Virus record (IMG/VR): IMGVR_UViG_3300045988_022658
Span: 1 to 31,632 of that record
Direction: 5' to 3' (one strand)
Source of the DNA: a virus
Length of the DNA stretch: 31,632 bases
Shown here: positions 56 to 29,231 of the stretch, piece by piece
Layout of the letters: every line of letters begins with the position of its first letter
Numbering within the stretch: position 1 is the first letter of the stretch
The notes under the pieces: generated by a model
Told to the model about the DNA's origin: nothing
Databases searched by the model: none
The model's input: only the letters and a program-made list of their open reading frames with translations
Made by a program: the position numbers and the translations under genes

Positions 56-354
56 CGCTCACGCCCGTTTTTGATAGCGTTTGCTGGATGCAAATCAAGC
101 TGGAGGATGCCAGAGCGGACATCGCAGAAGATGGGCTGACCGCCGAGTATGATAACGGCGGTGGGCAGACCGGTATCCGCGAAAATCCGGCATTCAAGGC
201 ATACAAAGCTCTGTGGAAGTCTTACTGTGCCGGGCTCCAAATCCTCCTGGCGGAGCTGCCGGACAGTGCAAAAGCCGCTGCGGCAGCTGCCGGGCAAAAA
301 ACTGCCCCGGAAACAGCGTTGGCCCTTGTGCTTGGCAAGCGAAAGGATGCGTGA
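1..354 (+). CDS. terS: Terminase small subunit (P27-family-like), 3' part; the gene starts at 31515 and crosses the circular junction
   Basis: The frame of ORF 7..354 is open back to base 1. It is the same frame as ATG 31515 read through the terminal duplicate, with no stops. TGA 352-354 lies 2 nt before the terL ATG. Synteny is HNH-terS-terL. Confidence 0.75.
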   Translation, partial: RKMTRFYRENGVDAEKIDALTPVFDSVCWMQIKLEDARADIAEDGLTAEYDNGGGQTGIRENPAFKAYKALWKSYCAGLQILLAELPDSAKAAAAAAGQKTAPETALALVLGKRKDA

Positions 355-356
355 CG

Positions 357-1799
357 ATGGCAGCGGATCGCATTGGATCGCAGACACCGAGAATTCAGGT
401 GGAGCCGGAGCGGGTGCGGTCTGATGGCGAGGATGCCGCAATCCTGATGGCGGCTTATGGCAACAGTCTGGATCCGTGGCAGCGGAGCGTGGTGGATTGC
501 TGGCTCGGGCGCGATGCGTCCGGCGCTTACAGCGTTACCTCCGCAGGTCTGGCGCTGCCGCGGCAGAACGGCAAAAACGTATGCCTGGAGGCGCGGGAAT
601 TTTTCGGGCTGGTGGTCAGCGGAGAGAAAATCCTGCATACGGCGCATCAGGTCCGGACGGCGAAAAAGAGCTTTAACCGGCTGGCGCAAATGTTTACCGA
701 CAAGCGCCACCCTGAGATCATTGCTCTGGTTAAAAACATCCGCCGAACCAATGGCGAGGAAGCCATTGAGCTGGTTAACGGCGGCGTGATCGAATTCTCC
801 TCACGGTCGCGGCAGGCTGTCCGCGGCTTTGACGGATTCAGCTTGGTTGTGTACGATGAGGCACAGGAGCTGACGGACGATCAGGTGGAAGCTATTATGG
901 CAACGCTGGCAGCATCGGCTACCGGCACCAGACAGATTATCTATACCGGGACACCCCCATATCCGGGGTGCCCCGGTACTGTTTTCCGCAGGCGGCGCAC
1001 TGCCTGCCTCCAAGCTCCCGGTGCACATGATGCATGGCACGAGTGGAGCGTGGACGGTGACGATGTAGAAAGGATCAACGTTGACGATCGGGACCTGTGG
1101 TACCAGACCAATCCGGCGCTGGGCATCCATCTCACCGAGGATTTTACCGCCGAGGAGCTGCGGAGCATGAGCCGGGACGGCTTTGCCCGAGAGCGGCTGG
1201 GCTGGTGGAGCCCGATGCTGACAGAGCAGGCGGACTTTGCCCTGAACAAAGCCGTCTGGGAAACGTGTGCATCGGAGGAACGGAAGCCGGAGGGCAAAAC
1301 CGCCTACGGCGTAAAGTTTGCCGCTGACGGGTCCGCCGTGTGCCTGTGCGGCGCTGTAATCCCCCAGGAGGGCCCGGCGCGGATCTCGCTGATTGATATG
1401 CAGCCCTGCGGCCGTGGCATCCGGTGGCTGGCAGACTGGCTGAATGCCCGGTATGACCGCGCCAGCTGCGTGGTGATTGACGGGCGCAACGGCGTGGATG
1501 TGCTGGTGGATCGGATCTCCGATACCTGGCGGGCAAAGGATGCTGTTGTCCGCGCCAATACCAAAAATGTAATTGCGGCGGTATCCGTGCTGACGGATGC
1601 CGTCAACGATGGATCGCTCAGCTGGTACAAGCCTCAGGCGGCGCTGAACGACAGCGCCGTTACCGCAACGAAACGGACATTCGGCGGCGGGTACGGATTT
1701 GGCGGAGACAACAGCCTGCCGATCGAGGCTTGCGCCCTGGCTCTCTGGGGTGCAAAGACCAGTAAGCGGGACCCCAACCGCAAAATGAGAATCGGGTAA
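357..1799 (+). CDS. terL: Terminase large subunit
   Basis: 480 aa. Walker A-like LPRQNGKN and Walker B-like LVVYDEAQE. ATG 357 is preferred over the in-frame ATG 213, which overlaps terS. Confidence 0.9.
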   Translation: MAADRIGSQTPRIQVEPERVRSDGEDAAILMAAYGNSLDPWQRSVVDCWLGRDASGAYSVTSAGLALPRQNGKNVCLEAREFFGLVVSGEKILHTAHQVRTAKKSFNRLAQMFTDKRHPEIIALVKNIRRTNGEEAIELVNGGVIEFSSRSRQAVRGFDGFSLVVYDEAQELTDDQVEAIMATLAASATGTRQIIYTGTPPYPGCPGTVFRRRRTACLQAPGAHDAWHEWSVDGDDVERINVDDRDLWYQTNPALGIHLTEDFTAEELRSMSRDGFARERLGWWSPMLTEQADFALNKAVWETCASEERKPEGKTAYGVKFAADGSAVCLCGAVIPQEGPARISLIDMQPCGRGIRWLADWLNARYDRASCVVIDGRNGVDVLVDRISDTWRAKDAVVRANTKNVIAAVSVLTDAVNDGSLSWYKPQAALNDSAVTATKRTFGGGYGFGGDNSLPIEACALALWGAKTSKRDPNRKMRIG

Positions 1800-8642: not shown

Positions 8643-9007
8643 TTGCCACCGACCAGGACGCTCTGATTTGTGACCTGGCTGAAACATATGGAATCTACGA
8701 TATGCAAGCACTGCCGGTTTCCACCCTGGCAGTGCTTGCTTCCGGTTTGAGGGACGATAGCCGCATTAAAATGAAGATGTCCGGCGTGAAAACCGATCAG
8801 GAGACGCTGCTGCTGGCAATGGCAGTGGACAACCTGCGGTTTTTGAGCTGGACAAAAACCGTGGCAGCACAGGACGGCAAGGATCGTCCGAAATCCATTG
8901 CCCGTGTGCTGCTGGGACAGGTGGAAGAAAAGCCCCAAAACGTTGCATACGGGAGTGGGGAAGAATTTGACGCTGCTTGGAAGCGTCTGACCGGAGGTGA
9001 GGCGTAA
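8355..9007 (+). CDS. Tail assembly chaperone GT-like fusion produced by a -1 frameshift at 8615-8621
   Basis: The -1 frame is open from the slippery site (ctc tgt acc ctc gcc gga atg...) into ORF 8639..9007, which has no convincing RBS of its own. Confidence 0.65.
8615..8621 (+). promoter_or_regulatory. Slippery heptamer A_AAA_AAC (programmed -1 frameshift site)
   Basis: Zero-frame codons are gga aaa aac, an X_XXY_YYZ pattern, 7 codons before the G stop codon. Confidence 0.65.
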
Positions 9008-12000
9008 TGGCAGGGACCAGCATTGCAAAGGCATATGTGCAGATCGTTCCGTCCGCCGAGGGAATTAAGGGCAAGCTGACCGACACGTTAAACGGTGAGG
9101 CTCAGATCGCAGGAAAGGTTGCCGGTGGAACTCTGAATACAACGCTGGGCAAGACGTTGACGGCAGGGGTGGCCGCAGGCACTGTCATAAGCAAGGTTAC
9201 GGGAGCTCTGTATTCCGCAGCAGGCAAGACTGCGAAAGCTGTGTACGAAGTCGGCAAGGCTGCTGTTTCCAGCTATGCCGACTGTGAGCAGTTTGTGGGC
9301 GGCGTGGAGACGCTTTTTAAGAGCAGCGCCCCCATTGTAGAGAGATACGCCAAAAATGCTTACAAGACCGCAGGGCTGTCTGCCAACGACTACATGGAGA
9401 CAGTTACCTCATTTTCCGCATCTCTGCTCAAAAGCCTTGGCAACGATACCGCAAAAGCCGCCGATAAGGCAGATATGGCAATTACCGATATGGCGGACAA
9501 TGCCAACAAAATGGGCACATCCATGGAGGCAATCCAGTATGCGTATCAGGGATTCGCCAAGCAGAACTATACGATGCTGGACAACCTTAAGATTGGCTAT
9601 GGCGGTACAAAGAGCGAAATGGAGCGTCTGCTCAAAGATGCAGAGGCCCTGAAGGCGAAACAGGGTGAGGTTGCCCATTACAGCATTGACAGCTATGCTG
9701 ATATTGTTGACGCGATCCATGTTGTGCAAACTGAGATGGGCATCACCGGCACTACGGCGCTGGAATCAGCGGAAACGATTTCCGGCAGTATGTCGAGTGC
9801 AAAAGCAGCTATTGATAACCTCCTGGTCGGCATGGTTGACACAGATCAAGACATTATCGCTCTGGGAGAACAGACAGCTAGCGCAGTGGCTACGGCATTT
9901 GAAAACGTTGCTCCGGCGATTGCTAATTTTATGACGGTTGGCGTCCGGGCGATTTCTGACGCAGTTGACCCAGCGAATAAAGTTTCCCGGGCAATTGGTG
10001 AGATTGAGGAAGCTCAGGAGCGGGTAACCAGCTCCAGCAATATCCTTGATCTTGTTGGACGCTACAAATCTTTGCAGGAACAAGCAGAGCGCTCTGGTGT
10101 GTCTTCCGGCGAACTGGCGGATATTGAAAAAGAACTGACCTCCGTGCGGAACCAACTGGCAACGGCAACCGGTAACGCGAAGATTGCGCAGTCCGAATCC
10201 AACGATGAGCTGGCTGATGCAGTAGAATACGAGGAAGCGCTTGCACAGAGTGAAAAAGAGCGTGCGCAAATGCAGCTCTATGAGGACGTGGCAAGGGGTG
10301 CAGCTGCGTATGGTGAGGCTCTGCACGAGCTGTATGTTACCAGTGGAGAGCTGGCGGACGCCGAAAAACAGTATGCCGACGTCACTGCGGATAAGACCAA
10401 GAATGCAGCACAGGAATACTCCAAGCTCTCCAGTGCGATAGACGATCTGTCCGACGGCTTCTTTGACGGCGAAATATCCGCTGAAGAGATGCATGTCAAG
10501 CTAGGCGAGATTGCAGATAGCGTGTATAGCCTGACCGGTGAGAAGGTGGAATTCAAGGACATTCTGGCTGGTCAGGACTATATCGACAAGCTGAGTCTCA
10601 CGTTTGACGACTTGACAGACCGCACGATTACCACATACGAAGAGTTGGATGAGCTTCGCACCCGGCAGGACGATTTAACGGAATCTACAGAGGCGTACCA
10701 GAGAAAAGTTGCAAGTCTCGTGGACAATGGTCTGCTTACAGCTGATGAGGCGGCTGGCTATCTTGGCATAACTGTAGATGAGCTAAAAGATGTGTTGGAT
10801 GCCGCTGCCGCTGCCTCGGACGATGCGGCTGCTTCCGCTGATGGCGTTGCAGATGCAATGACGGAAGAAGAAGCCGCTGCTCAAGAGCTGAGGAAATCTC
10901 TGGCTGATATCGGTACCGAGGCGTACAATGCGCTCAGTTCCGGCGAGGACTTGCGGGCGAAGTATGAGGAATTGACAGGGCAACTGGAAAACCTTGATGG
11001 TGAGCTGGACCAGAACACTTTGGACATGGTCAATACTGCGCTGGAAACTCTGAACCTTGCAGCCACCAATCAGGAGTTGACTAATAGTTATCCCGGATTT
11101 GTGACCGCGACTCAAAATGCCGGCGTCTCGCTGTCTAATCTATCTGCATGGCTGATTGACAACGAGATCACAGCAGAAGAATGGGGTTCCCGGGTGTCTG
11201 CGTCTGCGGATGGCATCGTCAATGATTTCGCCGAGCTTAACACCTCCACTGGGCAAAGTGTGTCCGAAATGAAAGCGGCGCTGGAGAGTAATATTGCAGC
11301 CTACACCAGCTGGAATAGCAATATAGCAAAACTCATGTCTGCCGCCGTTGCCAGCGGCGATCAGAGTAAGATTGCATTCGTGCAGTCTCTCCAGGATATG
11401 GGCATCGGCGCTGCCGACCAGGTGGCAGCCATGGCAGAGGACATTGACGGTACACTTGATGAGTTCGGTCCTCTTTTTGCTGACGCTACAGATCAGGGCA
11501 TGCTGGAAGTGAAGAACAGCATTGATAGCGGCACAGCGCCAGCGGAAGCCGCGGCAAAGTCCTCCATGAAGGATATCCAGGATGCAATGGAAAAGGTGAA
11601 CTTCAAGACCACTGGCAAAGAAGCTATTTCCGATGTCGCGTCTGGAATGTCCTCGAAAACAAGCACCGCAACAAACGCCGCAACAAATGTTGCAACCAGT
11701 GCAAAATCAGCTGCCGGGAGCGTGAGCTTTTACTCCGTCGGCTACAATATGGATTCCGGTATGTCCAGCGGTCTATATGGCGGGTCTAGCTTAGTGTCAA
11801 GCGCAGCCAGAAGCGTTGCAAAATCTGCGTATAATGCGGCAAAGGCTGCGCTGGGGATCCATTCCCCGTCCAGACTCTTTCGAGACGGCGTTGGCAAGAT
11901 GATCACCGAGGGTATTTCCACCGGTATGACCGCTCCGGATGCCATCCGGGGACTGAAAGCCGCATCGGAAGAAGTTACTGACTCGATATCTGAGAATTTT

Positions 12001-12255
12001 GCCGGTGACGCCGCCGATGTGTCCACTCAGTCTGTACTCTACGGTGCAGCCATGCGTGGAATCGTCGGCGGCGAACTGGCAGACGGCATTGCATCTCTGG
12101 AAGACAAGCTGGATCGTCTGATTGCTGTGCTTGCACGGATGGCCGGCGTTACCATCAACGTCAACGGCACGGACTACCAGAGCAAGATGGCGCTGGCGGA
12201 GGAGATTATGGACCTGATGCATCGAGATTGGACCCGTCAGGAGGCGGCAATATGA
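9007..12255 (+). CDS. Tape measure protein
   Basis: 1082 aa, Ala/Glu-rich and helical, located after the chaperone pair. RBS GGAGGTGA. Confidence 0.9.
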   Translation: MAGTSIAKAYVQIVPSAEGIKGKLTDTLNGEAQIAGKVAGGTLNTTLGKTLTAGVAAGTVISKVTGALYSAAGKTAKAVYEVGKAAVSSYADCEQFVGGVETLFKSSAPIVERYAKNAYKTAGLSANDYMETVTSFSASLLKSLGNDTAKAADKADMAITDMADNANKMGTSMEAIQYAYQGFAKQNYTMLDNLKIGYGGTKSEMERLLKDAEALKAKQGEVAHYSIDSYADIVDAIHVVQTEMGITGTTALESAETISGSMSSAKAAIDNLLVGMVDTDQDIIALGEQTASAVATAFENVAPAIANFMTVGVRAISDAVDPANKVSRAIGEIEEAQERVTSSSNILDLVGRYKSLQEQAERSGVSSGELADIEKELTSVRNQLATATGNAKIAQSESNDELADAVEYEEALAQSEKERAQMQLYEDVARGAAAYGEALHELYVTSGELADAEKQYADVTADKTKNAAQEYSKLSSAIDDLSDGFFDGEISAEEMHVKLGEIADSVYSLTGEKVEFKDILAGQDYIDKLSLTFDDLTDRTITTYEELDELRTRQDDLTESTEAYQRKVASLVDNGLLTADEAAGYLGITVDELKDVLDAAAAASDDAAASADGVADAMTEEEAAAQELRKSLADIGTEAYNALSSGEDLRAKYEELTGQLENLDGELDQNTLDMVNTALETLNLAATNQELTNSYPGFVTATQNAGVSLSNLSAWLIDNEITAEEWGSRVSASADGIVNDFAELNTSTGQSVSEMKAALESNIAAYTSWNSNIAKLMSAAVASGDQSKIAFVQSLQDMGIGAADQVAAMAEDIDGTLDEFGPLFADATDQGMLEVKNSIDSGTAPAEAAAKSSMKDIQDAMEKVNFKTTGKEAISDVASGMSSKTSTATNAATNVATSAKSAAGSVSFYSVGYNMDSGMSSGLYGGSSLVSSAARSVAKSAYNAAKAALGIHSPSRLFRDGVGKMITEGISTGMTAPDAIRGLKAASEEVTDSISENFAGDAADVSTQSVLYGAAMRGIVGGELADGIASLEDKLDRLIAVLARMAGVTINVNGTDYQSKMALAEEIMDLMHRDWTRQEAAI

Positions 12256-17028: not shown

Positions 17029-17298
17029 ATGGATTTTGGAATTGCTGGCGTTGCGGCTATTACCGTACTCGCCTATCTGATCGGGCAGGGCGTAAAAGCC
17101 ACTGGCATTGCGAATAAGTGGATCCCGGTTATTTGTGGTATTGTTGGACTGGCGCTGGGCATTGTGGCATTGTACATCATGCCAGATTTTCCAGCAGGTG
17201 ACCCCATTACCGCTGCTGCGATTGGCGCGGTTTCCGGTTTTGCCGCAACTGGCATCCACCAGGCTGCAAAACAGCAGAAGGAGGACAACAATGGCTAA
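17029..17298 (+). CDS. Holin
   Basis: 89 aa with multiple TM segments and a charged C-terminus (KQQKEDNNG). Overlaps the endolysin start. Confidence 0.75.
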   Translation: MDFGIAGVAAITVLAYLIGQGVKATGIANKWIPVICGIVGLALGIVALYIMPDFPAGDPITAAAIGAVSGFAATGIHQAAKQQKEDNNG

Positions 17299-18322
17299 AA
17301 TTATCGGCATTGACGTTTCCGAGCACAACGGCTCCATCAACTGGGAGGCGGTTAAAAAGGCGGGAGTAAGCTTCGCCTTTGTCCGCACGGGCTATGGAGT
17401 ATCCCATGTGGACAACTATTTCAAACGCAACATGGAGGGCGCTCTTGCCCAGGGCATCCCCGTGGGCATCTACCATTTTTCTTACGCCCTGAATGCTGCC
17501 GGGGCAAAAGCAGAAGCGGAATACGTCCTCAAGCTGATCCAGCCGTACAAGGACAAGATCACCCTCCCGGTGTTCTACGATTTTGAGTATGACACCGTCT
17601 CCTACGCCAAAAAGCAGGGTGTCACTCTGGGCAAGGAAGCGTTTAACGCCCATACTGTGGCATTCTGTGAGACGATCAAGGCGGCTGGCTATACGCCCGG
17701 TACATACTACAACCTGGACTATCTGCGCCGGTATGTGGACATTAACCGGGTGGGTGGATACGTCCAGTGGTATGCGCAGTATGCCAGCACAGCGTCTGCG
17801 GCTGGCTGGGCAATCTGGCAGTACAGCAGTTCCTACACCATCCCCGGATGCTCTGGGCGGTTTGACGTCAATGTGCTGGCGGATGCAAGCCTGCTGACTG
17901 GCAGCACCGGCAAATACACCATCGGCTGGCACCGGGACTCCAAGGGCTGGTGGTACGCCAACAGCACCACTACCTACTATAAAGAGCAGTGGGCAAAGAT
18001 CAATGATAAGTGGTATTACTTTGGCAAGGAGGGCTACGTGATGGAAAACGCGTGGAAGGTTGAGGCAGGCGGCGATACCTACTATCTGGGCGCTGATGGT
18101 GATATGCAGACCAGTATGGTTGTTGGGCTTGGCAGTGATGGCAAGCTACAGCCGATTGAGCGGTATTATCACCTGATCTCCGAGCTGCCGGATTATTACC
18201 GCGCGGAAATCGACCCGCTGATTGCAGCCGGGACCCTGAAGGGCAAAGCCGGCGAAGGGGAGAATCTGGTGCTGGACCTCAGTGAAAGCGCCCTGCGGGC
18301 GATTATTATTTGTAATCGGTAA
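17291..18322 (+). CDS. Endolysin: GH25 muramidase with cell-wall-binding repeats
   Basis: MAKIIGIDVSEHNGSINWEAVKKAGVSFAFVRTGYG is a GH25 signature. The C-terminal GWWY...WYYFGKEGYV...TYYLGADGDM repeats resemble choline/cell-wall-binding repeats. Confidence 0.9.
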   Translation: MAKIIGIDVSEHNGSINWEAVKKAGVSFAFVRTGYGVSHVDNYFKRNMEGALAQGIPVGIYHFSYALNAAGAKAEAEYVLKLIQPYKDKITLPVFYDFEYDTVSYAKKQGVTLGKEAFNAHTVAFCETIKAAGYTPGTYYNLDYLRRYVDINRVGGYVQWYAQYASTASAAGWAIWQYSSSYTIPGCSGRFDVNVLADASLLTGSTGKYTIGWHRDSKGWWYANSTTTYYKEQWAKINDKWYYFGKEGYVMENAWKVEAGGDTYYLGADGDMQTSMVVGLGSDGKLQPIERYYHLISELPDYYRAEIDPLIAAGTLKGKAGEGENLVLDLSESALRAIIICNR

Positions 18323-18610: not shown

Positions 18611-19768
18611 CTACATGGCAGTTTTAATATACTCTTGGAGCTTATCCAAAGAATTTTTCTTTTTTTCATCTCGCAGGTGGGTGTATATCCCAATCGTTGT
18701 TTCCACATCACTGTGACCAAGCAAGTGCTGGGCAGTATATACGTCCACCCCTGCCTCAAATAGGAGGGTGGCATACCCATGCCGCAGGACGTGCGCCGTC
18801 AGTGTTGGCTTGTAATGCGTCACTGTATATTTACGTTTCGCCTTGCTGATCCGGTGCTCAGTGGTAGTGGTCACAAAGCCCATGTCCTTGCAGTAATGCA
18901 GCCACCGGCGGCGATATGTCGATACCGGCATGGGCTTTGCCGGATTCTCACCAGGGAACACATAGTCTGTGTTTTTTGCCGTGCTTGGACGATGCAGCAC
19001 AGCCTCCAGCGGTTCCAAAAGTGGGAGCTGCCGTATCCCCGCTTCTGTCTTCGGGTCCTTAATCTTTGGTGCCCCAGAGTAGTAGGAGACCGATTTGCGG
19101 ACCGTAATCGTCTTGCTTTTGAAATCTATATCGCCCCATTGAATTGCCATTGCTTCGCCGTATCGCAGTCCTGTGCTCATCAAGAACAGCGCATACACTC
19201 CCCAATACGCAGTAGTTGCCTGTGCTCTGATTTGACGTACAATTTCATCCTCTGGCGCATTGCGCTTCATCGGAGGCTTTGCCCCCTTCGGCACTCTTAC
19301 ATTGTCCACAGGGTTGGTGGTGATATCTCGCGGAAGTTCCGGGCACACGATAGCGTGCCGGAATATCATCTTGTACATGATCTTCTGCTTTTGGATTGTG
19401 CTTTTGGCATAGCCCTGGAGCTTGAGCCATTCAAGGTGATTCTGCACGTCCGCAGAGGTAATAGACGCTATTGGTTCGCCCCCAAAGCGCTCCATTGCTC
19501 GTTTATAGTGAGCAGCGTAACAAGCCTTTGTGCCGTCTTCTAAGCCGTCCCACGCAGCATCATGCCAAGACTCCGCAGCTTCACCAAAGGTCAAGGGCTT
19601 CGGCTCCGCATTCTCCAGCTCCTGGATTTTGTGATAGAGTTTTTCCGGATCACGGGAGTATGCAGGCTTCCGCTTATCGCTTCCCGGCGGATAATACCAC
19701 CCCATATAACGCCCATCAGCTCGAAGGGTGTACATAGCTGCATAGTCTATTTTTTTGCTTCTGGGCAT
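18611..19768 (-). CDS. int: Tyrosine integrase
   Basis: 385 aa. HVLRHGYATLLFEAGVDVYTAQHLLGHSDVETTIGIYTHL carries the H-x-x-R ... H ... Y catalytic signature. RBS AGGTGG. Confidence 0.95.
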   Translation of the reverse strand: MPRSKKIDYAAMYTLRADGRYMGWYYPPGSDKRKPAYSRDPEKLYHKIQELENAEPKPLTFGEAAESWHDAAWDGLEDGTKACYAAHYKRAMERFGGEPIASITSADVQNHLEWLKLQGYAKSTIQKQKIMYKMIFRHAIVCPELPRDITTNPVDNVRVPKGAKPPMKRNAPEDEIVRQIRAQATTAYWGVYALFLMSTGLRYGEAMAIQWGDIDFKSKTITVRKSVSYYSGAPKIKDPKTEAGIRQLPLLEPLEAVLHRPSTAKNTDYVFPGENPAKPMPVSTYRRRWLHYCKDMGFVTTTTEHRISKAKRKYTVTHYKPTLTAHVLRHGYATLLFEAGVDVYTAQHLLGHSDVETTIGIYTHLRDEKKKNSLDKLQEYIKTAM

Positions 19769-19797: not shown

Positions 19798-19827
19798 TTG
19801 CAAAAACCCAAGGACAGGTGGTATAAT
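19798..19827 (+). promoter_or_regulatory. Sigma-70-type promoter TTGCAA-18 nt-TATAAT with extended -10 (TGG)
   Basis: The -35 is at 19798-19803 and TGgTATAAT at 19819-19827. It points away from int. Confidence 0.5.
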
Positions 19828-19833
19828 CGTCCT

Positions 19834-19912
19834 GCGTGGGAGCAATTTGGGCACCTGCCCGGATTGTTTCTGGTTTCCCTCTGGCGGTGCGAACGCCGGA
19901 GGGAAATTTTTT
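19834..19912 (+). ncRNA. Candidate ~80-nt small RNA or terminated leader
   Basis: Lies downstream of the 19798 promoter and contains no ATG. It ends in a 13-bp hairpin TTTCCCTCTGGCG / CGCCGGAGGGAAA (19874-19886 / 19894-19906) followed by TTTTTT. Confidence 0.35.
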
Positions 19913-20140
19913 ATAAAGCCACTATATTGTGAGCTTTTTCTACACATAAAAACAGTGAGCCACCGCTTGATTATCGTGAGGTATATGTCAAAAAAGAAAA
20001 ATCGGCTACCTATTATAACAGCAAAGCCCCTTATACTAAGGTCGTTACATCGGCATTGGGCGGCGCCGCAGAAATCATCACAGCATTTAACGTAAAAAGC
20101 CTATTTGGCGGGATGATTGAAGGAGAGGAGGCAATATATA

Positions 20141-20395
20141 TTGCGAAACGTGAATCAGAAATTTAACTATGATTCTAAATACGATATTCTATATATTTTG
20201 TTCTCTGACAGTAGCAATTCCTATGGTGACGACGAAACGCCCGGAATCATCTATATGAGAGATATGGATACCGACGAATTAACCGGATATACCATCACAC
20301 ATTTCAAGAAGATGTACCATAACAAGAAACTTCCTGATCTTCCATCTTCTTTCCCATATTCCTATGATGAGCTGTACAAGAACATAATGTCATAA
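20141..20395 (+). CDS. DUF2283-like small protein (AT-rich moron)
   Basis: NYDSKYDILYILFSD...ETPGIIYMRDMDTDELTGYTITHF follows the YD-x-x-x-D-x-LYI ... G-I ... I-x-G pattern of DUF2283. The start is ambiguous (TTG 20117, TTG 20141 after AGGAGAGGAGG, or GTG 20150). Confidence 0.65.
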   Translation: MRNVNQKFNYDSKYDILYILFSDSSNSYGDDETPGIIYMRDMDTDELTGYTITHFKKMYHNKKLPDLPSSFPYSYDELYKNIMS

Positions 20396-20414
20396 TTCAT
20401 AGCCATTTCACTCC

Positions 20415-20452
20415 CCCGCTCCAGTGCGCCAACACTGGGGCGGGATTTTTTT
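20415..20452 (+). terminator. Rho-independent terminator between convergent genes
   Basis: Stem CCCGCTCCAGTG / CACTGGGGCGGG (one G-U pair) followed by ATTTTTTT. Confidence 0.7.
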
Positions 20453-20993
20453 ATTCCGTATCCTTCAACAATTTATTCAACGCCTCATTAAGCTGGCTTA
20501 GCTGTCGTATAAGTATGAAATTCTGTTCCACAATCGCGCGTTGGTAATTGACCTGAACTTTGTCTGCGGCGTTCACTGATCGGTCCCCGCCCAAAAGACT
20601 GAGCGTAACGCCCGCATCCATTAGCCCGGTTCCAGCAAGTTCCGCAGCGATACGTGCAGCAGAGGCGACATCTCGACCATTGGTGAGGCTATCAAGCCCA
20701 TATTTTCTAAGAATGGCTTTTGCCTTTTCGGCTTGTTTTCTGTCTAAGCCAAAGTACGGGTCGATATCCCTTGGGTCAACCGGCTGTGGCGCGGATGGTT
20801 TCTCGGCTTCCGTTTTTGCGATTGCACCAGAGTTAAAACGCCCTTTGCATCCCGGAGTTGTGCAGCCTTTATTTGCTTCCCAACAGCTCTTGTGCATTAC
20901 TACATGGCAATGCGGGCACATTGTCGCATCTGAATTTCGCAGTATTTTCCCCTTGCAATAGCTGCAAGGGAATTTTGTCATATCCACAAGCAT
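20451..20993 (-). CDS. Prok-RING-type zinc-finger protein with an uncharacterised helical C-terminal domain
   Basis: N-terminus CSYCKGKILRNSDATMCPHCHVVMHKSCWEANKGCTTPGC has the pattern C-x2-C ... C-P-x-C ... H-x2-C-W ... GC ... GC. RBS AAAGGAGAG. Confidence 0.7.
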   Translation of the reverse strand: MLVDMTKFPCSYCKGKILRNSDATMCPHCHVVMHKSCWEANKGCTTPGCKGRFNSGAIAKTEAEKPSAPQPVDPRDIDPYFGLDRKQAEKAKAILRKYGLDSLTNGRDVASAARIAAELAGTGLMDAGVTLSLLGGDRSVNAADKVQVNYQRAIVEQNFILIRQLSQLNEALNKLLKDTE

Positions 20994-21011
20994 TTTTGCA
21001 TCTCTCCTTTT

Positions 21012-21039
21012 ATTTTACACCTTACGGTGCAGATTACAA
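21012..21039 (-). promoter_or_regulatory. Possible internal promoter TTGTAA-16 nt-TAAAAT for the Prok-RING gene
   Basis: Minus-strand reading of 21039-21012. Lies in the 58-nt gap after immA. Confidence 0.35.
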
Positions 21040-21051
21040 TTTCGGATGATT

Positions 21052-21504
21052 TTAACAACCATCTTCCGAAGCATCCCGGAAGCTGAGCCCGCAGGGACCG
21101 GTGTAATACTCCACCGCCTGCTGGATCAGGTCTTCCGGTACTTCAAAATACTCTGCCAACTGATATAACTCGGTATATCCGTCTTCCATAGCTGCTCTCA
21201 TTTCGTCGAATGGGAGCAGCTTTTTTATTTGTGCTCTTGCCGCACGGCGTTCAGCTGCCTGTATCACGCACGGCGTTGCGCCTATGGTATAGGTTGCTCC
21301 AGTGACAATATGCGCCCATTCATGAGATGCTGCCGCGCGTTCTTTTGCCACTGTATCCAATTTATCCAAATCGAAGAATACGCCATACACCCCGTCAGCT
21401 GCCACAACGCAAGCATCGGTTTCAGCTGGAAGCCGTTTGTATTCCGCAATTAGGACGGCACCAAGGTTGTATAGGTCTTCGTAGATTTCAGCAAGCTTAA
21501 GCAT
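21052..21504 (-). CDS. ImmA/IrrE-family metallopeptidase
   Basis: HEWAH (HExxH) motif, 150 aa, 4 nt downstream of the XRE repressor gene. Confidence 0.8.
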   Translation of the reverse strand: MLKLAEIYEDLYNLGAVLIAEYKRLPAETDACVVAADGVYGVFFDLDKLDTVAKERAAASHEWAHIVTGATYTIGATPCVIQAAERRAARAQIKKLLPFDEMRAAMEDGYTELYQLAEYFEVPEDLIQQAVEYYTGPCGLSFRDASEDGC

Positions 21505-21508
21505 TAAG

Positions 21509-21835
21509 TTACTCCTGTTTTTGGTTCATCTTGCGAAGTCTCTCCGCCATATCCACAAGCAGCTGCTTGTCTTGCTCAGACAGGTCGCGTGATGCATTGT
21601 GCATGGCAAAGGTAAAAGAATCCATTTGTTCTTCGCTTCTGGGCATGTCGTTTCCGAGAATGTAATCGACTGGGACGCCAAAGAACTCCCCAAGTCGAAG
21701 CAACGTTTCGTTATCCGGCTGACGCTTACCAGTTTCATATTGAGAAATTGTGCTTTCAGCCAATTCAACAACTGCGCCGAGCTGTTTCATAGTCATACCG
21801 CGAGACTTTCTAAGTTCACGAATTCGGTTTTTCAT
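21509..21835 (-). CDS. XRE-family HTH repressor (CI/ImmR-like)
   Basis: MKNRIRELRKSRGMTMKQLGAVVELAESTISQYETGKRQP is a classic HTH_3 pattern. It is divergent from a cro-like gene. Confidence 0.85.
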   Translation of the reverse strand: MKNRIRELRKSRGMTMKQLGAVVELAESTISQYETGKRQPDNETLLRLGEFFGVPVDYILGNDMPRSEEQMDSFTFAMHNASRDLSEQDKQLLVDMAERLRKMNQKQE

Positions 21836-21860
21836 GCAGCATCTCACCTTTCACATTGCC

Positions 21861-21889
21861 ATTATACACTCGTACTTCACATTTTGCAA
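21861..21889 (-). promoter_or_regulatory. Repressor promoter TTGCAA-17 nt-TATAAT (minus strand)
   Basis: The -35 is at 21889-21884 and the -10 at 21866-21861, about 25 nt upstream of the repressor ATG. Confidence 0.6.
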
Positions 21890-21914
21890 AATGAAAAGTA
21901 AATATAACTTTTCA
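21880..21914. promoter_or_regulatory. Candidate operators: the 14-bp perfect palindrome CATTTTGCAAAATG (21880-21893) and the inverted repeat TGAAAAGT-7 nt-ACTTTTCA (21892-21914)
   Basis: Both were read directly from the sequence. The palindrome covers the -35 of the repressor promoter. Confidence 0.5.
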
Positions 21915-21931
21915 AATCGACAAGAAATAGC

Positions 21932-21960
21932 TTGACAAATCGTGAATTCAATGCTAATAT
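21932..21960 (+). promoter_or_regulatory. Early lytic promoter TTGACA-17 nt-TAATAT
   Basis: Consensus -35 at 21932-21937 and -10 at 21955-21960, 30 nt upstream of the cro-like ATG. Confidence 0.65.
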
Positions 21961-21989
21961 ACAATTCGAGAAGTTAAGAGGTGATAAAC

Positions 21990-22214
21990 ATGCGTGAATG
22001 GTTAAAAACTATGCGTACTGAGCAGGGACTGACCATGAAGGATTTGAGCAAAAGACTTGGCATTTCCGAAAGTTATTACTGTGCTATTGAAAATGGTGAG
22101 CGGCAAAAGCGGATGGACTTAATGTTGTGCCATCAGCTTTCGGTGGTTTTCGGAAAGCCAATGTCTGAAATTTCAGATGCAGAGATGCGCTATAGATCTA
22201 TGCAACCAATATAG
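21990..22214 (+). CDS. Cro-like XRE-family HTH protein
   Basis: MREWLKTMRTEQGLTMKDLSKRLGISESYYCAIENGERQ. RBS AAGAGGTG at 6-nt spacing. Confidence 0.8.
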   Translation: MREWLKTMRTEQGLTMKDLSKRLGISESYYCAIENGERQKRMDLMLCHQLSVVFGKPMSEISDAEMRYRSMQPI

Positions 22215-22260
22215 CACAAATCCTGTCCCAATAACGGTACTTTTAAGGAGGTGAAGAAGA

Positions 22261-22359
22261 ATGGTTGACATCATCAATGCCGCAGGACCTTGGGTATTTT
22301 CAATCGTACTTTTCGGCGGCTTTTATCTTGTAGTTTGGTGGATGATACGAGGCGATTGA
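22261..22359 (+). CDS. 32-aa hydrophobic peptide (MVDIINAAGPWVFSIVLFGGFYLVVWWMIRGD)
   Basis: Below the ORF-track size cutoff and found by eye. Strong SD AAGGAGGTGA lies 9 nt upstream of ATG 22261. One TM helix. Overlaps the convergent gene's 3' end by 86 nt. Confidence 0.5.
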   Translation: MVDIINAAGPWVFSIVLFGGFYLVVWWMIRGD

Positions 22360-22699
22360 GACAATAATCAAAACTTTGGTAGATTGTTGTCAATTCGGCA
22401 CCAGACCGCAATTCTTCGATAAGCACTTCGAACCCATACATTTCGGTCTCCGGGACGTATGGCATAACTAAGTAGGTCGCCGCCAGCACAGACTGGATTG
22501 CACTGGTTCGCGTGGCTGTGGCAGAGTGCAGCTTGGCAAACGATTCGGCAAATGCGTTGATTGCGTCCATGCGGCGTGTCTCGTAAAATTCGAGCTGCTT
22601 CTGCTTGAGATCGTAACCCCGTGTCAACCACGTTGTTACTACCGTGGCAATTATCGTGAGCGGCGCCGCGAATGCAGCGATGATTGATGCAATATTCAT
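22274..22699 (-). CDS. Membrane-anchored 141-aa hypothetical protein (reverse-oriented moron in the early region)
   Basis: RBS GGGAGGTGA. N-terminal TM segment IASIIAAFAAPLTIIATVVTTWL. Has its own promoter. Confidence 0.7.
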   Translation of the reverse strand: MNIASIIAAFAAPLTIIATVVTTWLTRGYDLKQKQLEFYETRRMDAINAFAESFAKLHSATATRTSAIQSVLAATYLVMPYVPETEMYGFEVLIEELRSGAELTTIYQSFDYCLNRLVSSTKLQDKSRRKVRLKIPKVLRH

Positions 22700-23467: not shown

Positions 23468-23683
23468 ATGTCGAGATATTATTCGGATGATCCAATTGCG
23501 GATTTCGACCGCTGGGATCGGGATCAGCAAAAATTGCTGGACAAGCTCCCGAGATGCTACGCCTGCGAGGAGCCTATCCAGGATGATGTCTGCTACTGCT
23601 TCAACGGGCACAAGTACTGCCTGGACTGCAAGGATGCAGCCGCAGATGATATCCTACCCGAGTTTCTGGAGGCGACGGTATGA
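23468..23683 (+). CDS. Small Cys-rich (zinc-ribbon-like) protein
   Basis: 71 aa, RBS AAGGAGAGG. Contains CYACEEPIQDDVCYCFNGHKYCLDC. Confidence 0.65.
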   Translation: MSRYYSDDPIADFDRWDRDQQKLLDKLPRCYACEEPIQDDVCYCFNGHKYCLDCKDAAADDILPEFLEATV

Positions 23684-23910
23684 TCCAGAGCGGCGTGCAA
23701 GGCTATGTTACCGGCACGGCGACGGTCACAGTCAACTTTCCGATTGACCTACATGGCAATCTGGATATCAACTGCCGTCAATGCTGGTACTTCCGGCGGA
23801 CTTATTCCACCTGCGGCCTTAATGGCCAGGTATGCGAGTACCCGGACAAGTACATTGGGTCTCGGTGCCCGTTAAAATTCGGAGAGGAGGACGACGATGG
23901 GAGTCTATGA
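23680..23910 (+). CDS. Small Cys-rich hypothetical protein
   Basis: 76 aa, ATGA coupling. Contains CRQCWYF...CGLNGQVCEYP...CP. Confidence 0.6.
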   Translation: MIQSGVQGYVTGTATVTVNFPIDLHGNLDINCRQCWYFRRTYSTCGLNGQVCEYPDKYIGSRCPLKFGEEDDDGSL

Positions 23911-24547
23911 TAAGCTGCTGGCAATTCAGGCAGAGCTCAAAGCCCCCAAAAACCAGCATAGTGTTTTCGGCAACTTTAACTATCGCAGTTGCGAGGATAT
24001 TCTGGAGGCAGTCAAGCCACTGTGTAAGGCGCACAATGCGCTGGTGATGATCTCCGACGAGCTGGAGTATATCAACGGCAGGTTTTACGTCAAGGCCGTG
24101 GCGACGTTTGCAGATGCCGAAACCGGTGGAAACGTGCATGTATCTGCATATGCAAGAGAGCCGGAAAACAAGAAGGGCATGGATGATTGCCAGCTTACTG
24201 GAGCGGCGTCAAGCTACGCGCGGAAGTATGCACTCAATGGGCTGTTTTGCATCGACGATGCAAAAGACCCCGACACTGACGCATATGGAAGACAGACCGG
24301 CAAGGGCGCCACCAAAAAGCAGCCCGATAATCAGCCGGACAAGCCCACACCCCCCGCTCCGCCCCCGGCTGTGGTCAAGTGCAAGGACTGTGGAAAGCCC
24401 ATTACTGATGTGACCTGGGCAAACGGCTCTAAAACCGGCGCCAAGACGATGGTCAACAAGACCATTCAGAAATACGGCGTGCCGCTCTGCGGTGACTGCT
24501 ACACCCTGAGGCGGGCGAAGGAGCAGACCGATGGAAACCAGAGCTGA
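23897..24547 (+). CDS. erf: ERF-family single-strand annealing protein with a C-terminal zinc ribbon
   Basis: KLLAIQAELKAPKNQHSVFGNFNYRSCEDILEAVKPLCKAHN...AASSYARKYALNGLFCIDD fits the ERF pattern. C-terminal CKDCG...CGDC. Confidence 0.75.
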   Translation: MGVYDKLLAIQAELKAPKNQHSVFGNFNYRSCEDILEAVKPLCKAHNALVMISDELEYINGRFYVKAVATFADAETGGNVHVSAYAREPENKKGMDDCQLTGAASSYARKYALNGLFCIDDAKDPDTDAYGRQTGKGATKKQPDNQPDKPTPPAPPPAVVKCKDCGKPITDVTWANGSKTGAKTMVNKTIQKYGVPLCGDCYTLRRAKEQTDGNQS

Positions 24548-28216: not shown

Positions 28217-28356
28217 GCTACACTGAGGCATTGCACATTGTAACCGATTACTCAACTGCACTGAGCATGGGCTATGCGCTGGATAAAGACTGCTGCCTTG
28301 AGTACGCTGAAGCGTTGCGGATCGTGCTCCAGCGGGCGGAACAGGAGACAATATGA
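28213..28356 (+). CDS. 47-aa hypothetical protein
   Basis: Not in the ORF track because it is under 60 aa. ATGA overlaps at both ends link it to its neighbours. Confidence 0.45.
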   Translation: MSYTEALHIVTDYSTALSMGYALDKDCCLEYAEALRIVLQRAEQETI

Positions 28357-29231
28357 GCGAATGGTATGACGAGAGCCTTGACAGGCTTAGGACGGCGGCA
28401 CGGCTGTCAGAACAGTATTATAAAAAGCCTCTGGTTGTGACCACTTCCGGCGGCAAAGACAGCTCTGTATGTGTTGATTTGGCTATCAAGGCTGGGATCA
28501 ATTTTGAGGTACTCCATAATCACACCACGGCAGACGCTCCGGAGACAGTCCGATTTGTCAGGGACGAGTTCCGGCGGCTGGAGCTGATGGGGATTAAATG
28601 CACGATCAACTGGCCCATGTACAAGGGGCAGCGCACATCCATGTGGGATTTGATTCCACAGACGCGCATGCCGCCTACACGGCCGGTGAGGTACTGCTGT
28701 GCGGTGCTTAAAGAGCACGGCGGCACTGGGAGATTTATCACCACAGGGGTACGCTGGGCAGAATCCACCGCCCGAAAGAACAACCGAGGAGCGTTTGAGC
28801 GAAGCCACCGAAACAAGGAGAAACGGATCATCATCAACGACAATGACCCGGATCGGCTGCTGTTTGAAAATTGCTCAATCAAAGCGAAACGGGTTTGCAA
28901 TCCAATAATTGACTGGGAGGACGAAGACGTTTGGCACTACATTGAGGAAAACCATGTGCCGGTGAATCCACTATATGCGGAGGGATTTAACAGGGTTGGA
29001 TGCATCGGGTGTCCGCTAGCCGGGAAACGCAAACGCGAGGCCGAATTTGAGCGGTGGCCGAAATACAAGACGGCGTATATCTTAGCATTTGACAGGATGC
29101 TGGAGGGGCGGAAACGGCGCTGGCAATCTCAAAATGATTGGCTAACCGGAACCGATGTGTTTAACTGGTGGATGGAGTACGATGTGCTGCCGGGGCAAAT
29201 GGAAATGGAGGATGTGCTATGTGAGTCTTGA
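28353..29231 (+). CDS. PAPS-reductase / DndC-like PP-loop ATP pyrophosphatase family protein
   Basis: PP-loop motif VVTTSGGKDSSV. C-terminal NRVGCIGCPLAGKRKRE Cys motif as in DndC/IbrA-type proteins. Confidence 0.75.
   Translation: MSEWYDESLDRLRTAARLSEQYYKKPLVVTTSGGKDSSVCVDLAIKAGINFEVLHNHTTADAPETVRFVRDEFRRLELMGIKCTINWPMYKGQRTSMWDLIPQTRMPPTRPVRYCCAVLKEHGGTGRFITTGVRWAESTARKNNRGAFERSHRNKEKRIIINDNDPDRLLFENCSIKAKRVCNPIIDWEDEDVWHYIEENHVPVNPLYAEGFNRVGCIGCPLAGKRKREAEFERWPKYKTAYILAFDRMLEGRKRRWQSQNDWLTGTDVFNWWMEYDVLPGQMEMEDVLCES

Follow-up and report, generated by a model that had tools for sequence, protein, structure and literature searches.

A Prok-RING_1-type zinc finger joined to a helical protein family of phage lysogeny modules

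Accessory genes are found between the repressor and the integrase of several temperate phages of Gram-positive bacteria, namely ltp of TP-J34, sie2009 of Tuc2009 and orf203 of Sfi21, and in lambda the rexAB genes adjoin cI. These genes are transcribed in the lysogen, and their products are membrane-bound or lipoproteins with demonstrated exclusion activity. The integrative element ICEBs1 has an operon in the order immR-immA-int on one strand. Two catalogued families are of concern here, the zinc finger Prok-RING_1 (PF14446; Burroughs, Iyer and Aravind 2011, Mol Biosyst 7:2261) and PHROG 16443, yet neither has a tested function in phages, and a text search of the literature for Prok-RING or PF14446 returned nothing on phages. 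Burroughs et al. reportedly hold that prokaryotic RING fingers are not all tied to ubiquitin-like systems, and that some prokaryotic treble-clef domains pair with peptidases.

The window analyzed here (positions 1 to 31,632 of IMG/VR record IMGVR_UViG_3300045988_022658, 31,632 nucleotides in all) is an essentially complete temperate siphovirus-type genome, the host group being gut Firmicutes. Its lysogeny block shares with ICEBs1 the order of XRE repressor, metalloprotease and integrase on one strand, and differs from it in an additional gene after ImmA, of a family far commoner without ImmA than with it. The map position of this gene, called here the RING gene, is like that of ltp, sie2009, orf203 and rexAB; unlike their products, the RING-gene protein is soluble by prediction, unrelated in sequence, and a candidate rather than a demonstrated exclusion factor. 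It consists of a PHROG 16443 core to which a Prok-RING_1 finger is joined at the N-terminus, a new architecture made of two domain families that were already catalogued. The finding is real, and less exotic than first proposed.

The RING gene and its transcription

The features of the window are collected in Table 1. Beyond the lysogeny block, the plus-strand early region encodes the cro-like HTH protein, Erf, NinB, HNH, SSB and replication initiators. No close annotated relative was found among GenBank phages by megablast of the window, and tRNA and Rfam scans of the window gave no matches. The early region encodes several other small Cys-rich proteins (23468-23910 and 23897-24547, +): one of 71 aa has CxxC...CxxC pairs and another, of 76 aa, is rich in Cys, and both lack a PHROG match; the Erf-like annealing protein likewise has a C-terminal CxxC...CxxC ribbon. 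A PAPS-reductase-like gene (28353-29231, +; PHROG 424, E 3.5e-41) lies amid the early and replication genes.

Table 1. Coordinates of features in the window
Feature	Position	Strand	Evidence or remark
Large terminase	213-1799	+	
Portal and major head protein		+	
Tape measure protein	9007-12255	+	
Endolysin	17108-18322	+	
Tyrosine integrase	18611-19768	-	End of lysogeny module; Phage_integrase E 3e-25
DUF2283 gene	20117-20395	+	Convergent; low GC, 0.39-0.40; DUF2283 E 4e-5
GC-rich hairpin	20415-20444		Directly after the RING stop codon; 12-bp stem, 9 GC
RING-finger ORF	20451-20993	-	180 aa
Three-helix core	20460-20741	-	aa 85-178; PHROG 16443
Pro-rich acidic linker	20742-20831	-	aa 55-84; predicted disordered, AF2 pLDDT < 50 at aa 56-71
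C4HC3 binuclear zinc finger	20847-20978	-	aa 6-49; Pfam Prok-RING_1
Spacer	20994-21051	-	58 nt; RBS and promoter-like hexamers
ImmA-like metalloprotease	21052-21504	-	HEWAH motif; PHROG 87, E 3.9e-10
XRE/HTH_3 repressor	21509-21835	-	HTH_3 E 6e-16; PHROG 8/3/4 repressors
Repressor-side switch promoter	21861-21889	-	TTGCAA-17-TATAAT, 10/12 match
Divergent promoter	21932-21960	+	TTGACA-17-TAATAT, toward the cro-like gene
cro-like HTH gene	21981-22214	+	

The RING ORF is a real gene, as it has a good RBS (GGAGAG at 21007-21002, 8 nt ahead of the ATG) and many homologues. A preliminary description had placed it directly behind an XRE-ImmA pair on the same strand, and both order and strand were confirmed: the ImmA-like gene is 58 nt upstream and the XRE gene comes next, all on the minus strand. 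The Pfam match of the ImmA-like protein to Peptidase_M78 is weak (E 0.037), and a close 148-aa homologue has a precomputed PF06114 match. The likely start of the XRE repressor is the ATG at 21835, the mechanical ORF beginning at a GTG (21847) within the RBS. In the JGI/IMG annotation the RING gene was called as a 148-aa version (P0212, 20451-20897), whose start at Met33 is deduced from its length; a call from Met33 would remove half of the zinc finger, so that the domain would be missed there.

The same description had proposed a promoter belonging to the RING gene itself, the hexamers TTGTAA-16-TAAAAT at 21039-21012, and this did not hold up. The site scores 9/12, and a promoter scan over 2.6 kb returned six sites scoring like it against 4.5 expected from shuffles, which puts it at chance level. 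It is not conserved in other RING orthologues, and it lies outside the segment of the spacer (20994-21016) that is common to the locus of a 99% identical orthologue in prophage L133, where the space ahead of the RING cassette is too short for a separate promoter. The XRE-ImmA-RING transcript probably starts from the switch promoter (21889-21861), from which reading would pass through XRE and ImmA into the RING gene and give the protein in the lysogen. Expression in the lysogen, which had also been predicted earlier, is very probable: the family is operonic with repressor genes, and the 99% identical copy starts 14 nt after a repressor stop.

The hairpin that follows the RING gene has a T-run on the plus strand; on the gene strand it is preceded by an A-run and lacks a following U-run. 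A hairpin also follows the stop codon of the 99% identical orthologue at the matching position (L133 10545-10575), where no convergent gene needs a terminator, and it may block incoming antisense transcription or stabilize the 3' end of the mRNA. The DUF2283 gene, which is variable cargo, fills the slot that separates the RING gene from the integrase. Some 290 nt upstream of the DUF2283 gene, a promoter-like site (10/12, 19798-19827) is followed by a terminator-like hairpin (19872-19908); the two could represent a leader or a small RNA.

Zinc finger, linker and helical core

The Prok-RING_1 model matches the finger at 31.1 bits (E 2.4e-7), exceeding the curated gathering cut-off of 29.1, so that the Prok-RING-type pattern of Cys and His residues first noticed by eye is borne out by profile search. 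Other RING, C1 and zinc-ribbon Pfam models overlap the finger with weaker scores, and a homologue (P0001) has a precomputed PF14446 match as well. The spacing is C-x2-C-x12-C-x2-C-x4-H-x2-C-x6-C-x4-C, a cross-brace arrangement. Seven RING-bearing homologues have finger regions 46-97% identical to that of the window, and in all seven the eight ligands (C10, C13, C26, C29, H34, C37, C44 and C49) stay unchanged; H28 and H30, which are not ligands, vary. These ligands would bind zinc. In the AF2 model the finger has two short strands and one helix and a pLDDT of 78-88.

A profile of the seven fingers searched against the PDB placed the C1 domain of ARHGEF2 first (9h1o, E 1.4e-4) and Pygopus PHD fingers second (e.g. 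3zpv, E 1.5e-3), followed by the C1 domain of PKC-delta and then the RING-H2 domain of EL5 (E 0.035); the top Foldseek matches of the finger were RING, PHD and FYVE domains, all weak with E > 0.7. The likeness to C1 and PHD domains includes the spacing C-x2-C-x12-C-x2-C-x4-H-x2-C, and the differences are that the window finger lacks the N-terminal His of C1, ends in a short C-x4-C pair, and has no lipid- or histone-related context. A fair description of the finger, judged from sequence, is a treble-clef binuclear type belonging to the RING/PHD/C1 group and classed by Pfam as Prok-RING_1.

A word-index protein search with the finger alone gave zero candidates, tblastn against GenBank phages gave a single match at chance level, and the one match from a pattern scan of IMG/VR (L136) was discarded as spurious, a Cys-rich hit in the capsid region. 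The closest metagenomic relatives found, about 800 aa long, contain several hydrophobic stretches of membrane type around their finger, which has an HVMHKSCW(D/E)xN core in common with that of the window; by eye, an FHA-like motif is present at their C-terminus, and the N-terminal region is possibly vWA-like. The window finger thus resembles Prok-RING_1 in its above-cut-off profile score and eight cross-brace ligands, and differs in being N-terminal in a small phage protein of the soluble type, in having C4HC3 rather than the C3H2C3 ligands of its relatives, and in that neither the membrane segments of those relatives nor conjugation genes were seen with it.

The acidic linker (pI 4.4) leads into a domain that the preliminary description had called helical and had been unable to place. 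It is indeed helical by prediction, and can now be placed: it matches PHROG 16443 with an E-value of 2.9e-16 over profile positions 12-98 of 100 (87 matched), and is the conserved and widespread part of the protein. The family motifs are (Y/F)G(L/M) at aa 98-100, a G-x-G-rich turn at aa 121-128 and EQN(F/W)IxI(R/K)QL at aa 156-165, the last present as EQNFIxIRQL in the C-terminal helix. Among 125 sequences, N158 is conserved in 100% and Q157 in 99%, and the heptad a/d positions 154, 161, 165, 168 and 172, in 3-4 spacing, are at least 93% hydrophobic. The hydrophobic heptad and the invariant Asn158 suggest a coiled-coil-type oligomerization surface on the long C-terminal helix, and this helix probably drives oligomerization.

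AF2, given the 125-sequence alignment, predicted a three-helix C-domain (pLDDT 81; helices at domain residues 11-23, 32-59 and 67-105), for which a Foldseek search of the PDB found nothing significant. A Foldseek search of the PDB with the full-length model likewise gave nothing significant, and against BFVD that model had no match at E <= 0.001, the best weak matches being RING-type fingers. The family profile found only chance-level matches in a sequence search of the PDB, and the C-domain had no matching model in Pfam, NCBIfam or PADLOC, 125 family members having also been scanned singly. Resemblance to DksA/TraR, which combine a helical hairpin with a zinc finger, was considered and set aside, as here the hairpin tip is poorly conserved and the C-terminal helix invariant. 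No homologue of known function was found for the RING-gene protein. It has no transmembrane segment (maximum Kyte-Doolittle value 1.19 in a 19-aa window) and is predicted to be soluble.

PHROG 16443 proved to be a large family. A word-index search returned five full-length relatives and 33 stand-alone clusters, mostly of 99-127 aa, aligning to the C-terminal half; a profile search of 1.84 billion cluster representatives returned 416 clusters at E <= 1e-3, 188 of them at E <= 1e-10, clusters being counted at 50% identity. Nearly all are 85-110 aa long and mostly stand-alone, and they come from temperate phages of Firmicutes. The window protein has the motifs and lysogeny-module position of these stand-alone members, and differs from them in adding an N-terminal finger and linker. 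Cysteine pairs are present in 14 of 186 collected members, six of RING type and eight simple zinc ribbons, the ribbons being N-terminal in P0110, P0144, P0146, P0149 and P0166 and C-terminal in P0068, P0090 and P0130; among 150 listed representatives of the 50%-identity clusters, two have a RING-type finger. This distribution indicates that zinc modules were fused to the helical core repeatedly and independently, at either end. From these comparisons the helical domain appears as the conserved functional core of the protein, and the RING finger as a rare, lineage-specific add-on.

Genomic context and a mobile cassette

One hundred loci of the family were drawn from genomes, IMG/VR and metagenome assemblies and their ORFs called, leaving 62 non-redundant loci after removal of duplicates, and XRE, ImmA-like, tyrosine-integrase and serine-recombinase genes were labeled with iterated HMMs. 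An XRE gene is immediately upstream on the same strand in 34 of the 62, with gaps mostly of 2-35 nt, and in 42 when the range on that strand is widened to two genes. Integrases follow within three genes, again on the same strand, in 41 (21 tyrosine, 20 serine), and an ImmA-like gene is immediately upstream in four. The survey of homologous neighborhoods that had been suggested at the outset therefore supports a link to the repressor and not one to ImmA. The upstream repressors are varied, including short XRE proteins, S24 (LexA-like) fusions and ImmA-partnered forms. Prophage 315.5 of Streptococcus pyogenes has the order cI-like gene, metalloprotease-motif gene, family member, one further gene and int. 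Hosts named in the genome records are Lachnospiraceae, other Clostridia, Erysipelotrichaceae and Streptococcus. A minority of members are found elsewhere: in L026, L031 and L033 the gene directly follows the lysis cassette and no integrase is close by, and in the first two neither an integrase nor a divergent repressor occurs within 5 kb; two others (L019 and L022) lie in ordinary, non-phage chromosomal surroundings.

The RING-bearing orthologues show a similar diversity of neighbors. P0003 has an XRE gene and a small HTH gene upstream, and a 100-aa gene followed by a serine recombinase downstream; P0002 has an S24 repressor upstream and two unannotated genes downstream, after which the contig ends before any integrase; P0005 is preceded by an XRE gene, a 301-aa BRCT protein and a 109-aa protein, and followed by a serine recombinase. 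The BRCT-domain protein (L130 2706-3611) comes straight after the XRE repressor in this operon, and BRCT domains are unusual in phage switch regions. The prophage carrying P0003 also has a Tad2-like gene (anti-Thoeris family, PF11195; L001 4490-4732) beside its switch.

The most telling orthologue, P0216, is 99% identical to the window protein and belongs to L133, an integrated prophage on a 243-kb contig. Its gene starts 14 nt past the stop of a 219-aa S24 repressor gene, that stop overlapping the RBS, and this spacing implies co-transcription with the repressor; there is no ImmA at the locus. Downstream are the hairpin, HicA/HicB, a 120-aa gene, the integrase and then host genes. Comparison of the window with L133 by blastn found as common blocks the tail and lysis genes, the integrase (96% DNA identity) and the segment 20429-21016, which holds the RBS, the ORF and part of the hairpin at 96.9% identity and ends inside the hairpin at 20429. 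Not shared are 21017-22222 (ImmA, XRE and the cro-like gene) and 19918-20428 (the DUF2283 gene), the slot of the latter holding HicA/HicB in L133. The RBS-ORF-hairpin cassette is exchanged among prophages with different types of repressor and different neighboring cargo, and this argues that it does not act via ImmA or via one type of repressor. Being exchanged as a discrete unit with non-homologous DNA on both sides, the block 20429-21016 is like a moron; it is unlike one in that a promoter of its own is not supported, and in its GC content, 0.47-0.52 across the RING gene against 0.46-0.52 across ImmA and XRE.

Possible roles of the RING-gene protein

The reading we prefer, tentatively, is that of an accessory protein expressed in the lysogen, which binds stoichiometrically to a target outside the switch and protects the lysogen against other phages. 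The protein would be a soluble one of two domains, in which a disordered Pro-rich linker separates the zinc finger from the three-helix PHROG 16443 domain; the C-terminal helix would make it an oligomer, and the finger would most likely be an additional module that binds a protein, a peptide or nucleic acid, and not a ubiquitin-type E3. An accessory role is favored because the gene is independent of repressor and integrase type, because the family is sometimes found in another accessory hot spot, after the lysis genes, and because its neighbors in the slot are variable cargo (DUF2283, HicAB and DUF4160 pairs). The gene has the same map position as the known exclusion genes, which supports a protective function, and it is in this sense that we infer a role of exclusion or defense type. 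Superinfection immunity and abortive infection, both put forward in the preliminary description, are candidate roles. That function is weakened by the predicted solubility of the protein, as the exclusion proteins we know of in this position are membrane proteins or lipoproteins, and PADLOC matched the protein to no known defense family. A GC content like that of the neighbors, unlike a recently acquired moron, and a tight and widespread coupling to repressor genes, which fits core regulation too, also weigh against the accessory reading.

As a membrane-type candidate for superinfection exclusion, a different gene of the window is better suited than the RING gene. It encodes a 141-aa protein (22274-22699, -) with a strong N-terminal transmembrane helix (hydropathy 2.34) and no Pfam or PHROG match, and lies just past the cro-like gene, antisense to the early genes. 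Positions 22250-22641, which include most of this gene, are 99% identical in DNA to prophage L133.

The main rival to the accessory role, though we think it unlikely, is a core lysogeny regulator whose helical domain acts in the switch or on integration. Such a protein might modulate the stability or activity of the repressor, or the expression or directionality of the integrase, with the zinc module tethering it to DNA or to a partner protein. The operonic arrangement with repressors at gaps of 2-35 nt (14 nt in L133), the position before an integrase in 41 of 62 loci, the large family with its strongly conserved motif, and a GC content matching the surrounding module all agree with this explanation. 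It is opposed by the heterogeneity of the upstream repressors, by two unrelated classes of integrase downstream, by near-identical proteins in modules with different repressor genes, and by the members after a lysis cassette (L026, L031) or in a non-phage chromosome (L019, L022).

We give rather little credence to counter-defense of an anti-CRISPR-like or anti-restriction-like kind, in which a small helical dimer, kept on in the prophage, would block a component of host immunity. The protein is small and helical and lacks enzyme motifs, its family is found in accessory hot spots, either in the lysogeny module or just past the lysis genes, and one orthologue has the Tad2-like gene nearby; against this, transcription with the repressor is the wrong timing to protect incoming DNA, and the full-length model had no BFVD match at the threshold given above. 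The one anti-CRISPR candidate checked, AcrIIA21 of Streptococcus prophages, is a different protein, related to replication initiator A, and identity with it was rejected.

Signaling to ImmA, as proposed in the preliminary description, would make the finger an adaptor or sensor presenting the repressor or a signal peptide to the protease. This is highly improbable, and largely refuted already by synteny: adjacency to ImmA in the window and four other non-redundant loci, together with the pairing of some prokaryotic treble-clef domains with peptidases that Burroughs et al. reportedly describe, is outweighed by the 58 of 62 family loci without ImmA, by its absence from the loci of the RING orthologues P0002, P0003 and P0005, and by P0216, which follows an autocleaving-type S24 repressor with no ImmA.

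A true RING E3 ligase of a ubiquitin-like conjugation system, to which the Pfam family name, the cross-brace pattern and weak structural and sequence matches to RING-H2 domains might point, is scarcely credible, and the finger is very unlikely to act as a ubiquitin-type ligase: no E1, E2, Ubl or JAB gene was found among the window genes scanned (a subset of the ORFs) or in precomputed Pfam matches at the RING-orthologue loci L001, L129, L130 and L133, matches to C1 and PHD domains are at least as good as those to RING, plain zinc ribbons replace the finger at either terminus in homologues, and its nearest relatives are membrane signaling proteins with an FHA-like motif (seen by eye) rather than members of conjugation operons.

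The PHROG 16443 domain might even be an unrecognized, widespread component of the lysogeny operons of Firmicutes phages, with one specific conserved target, in host or phage, through which superinfection or the choice between lysis and lysogeny is steered. We regard this as doubtful; if true, the RING lineage would show how bacteria use a binuclear finger without ubiquitin machinery, for instance in the capture of peptides or nucleic acid. The window provides a case of a RING-like finger near which no ubiquitin-like conjugation genes were seen, and the RING fusions, with the parallel fusions of zinc ribbons, offer a handle on the binding partner of the helical domain. Our findings shift the focus to an uncharacterized family of about 100 aa and some 416 clusters with a fixed place between repressor and integrase, a position kept in phages that infect Lachnospiraceae, Erysipelotrichaceae, Streptococcus and other hosts, which makes the family a good and inexpensive target for deletion and phage-challenge work.
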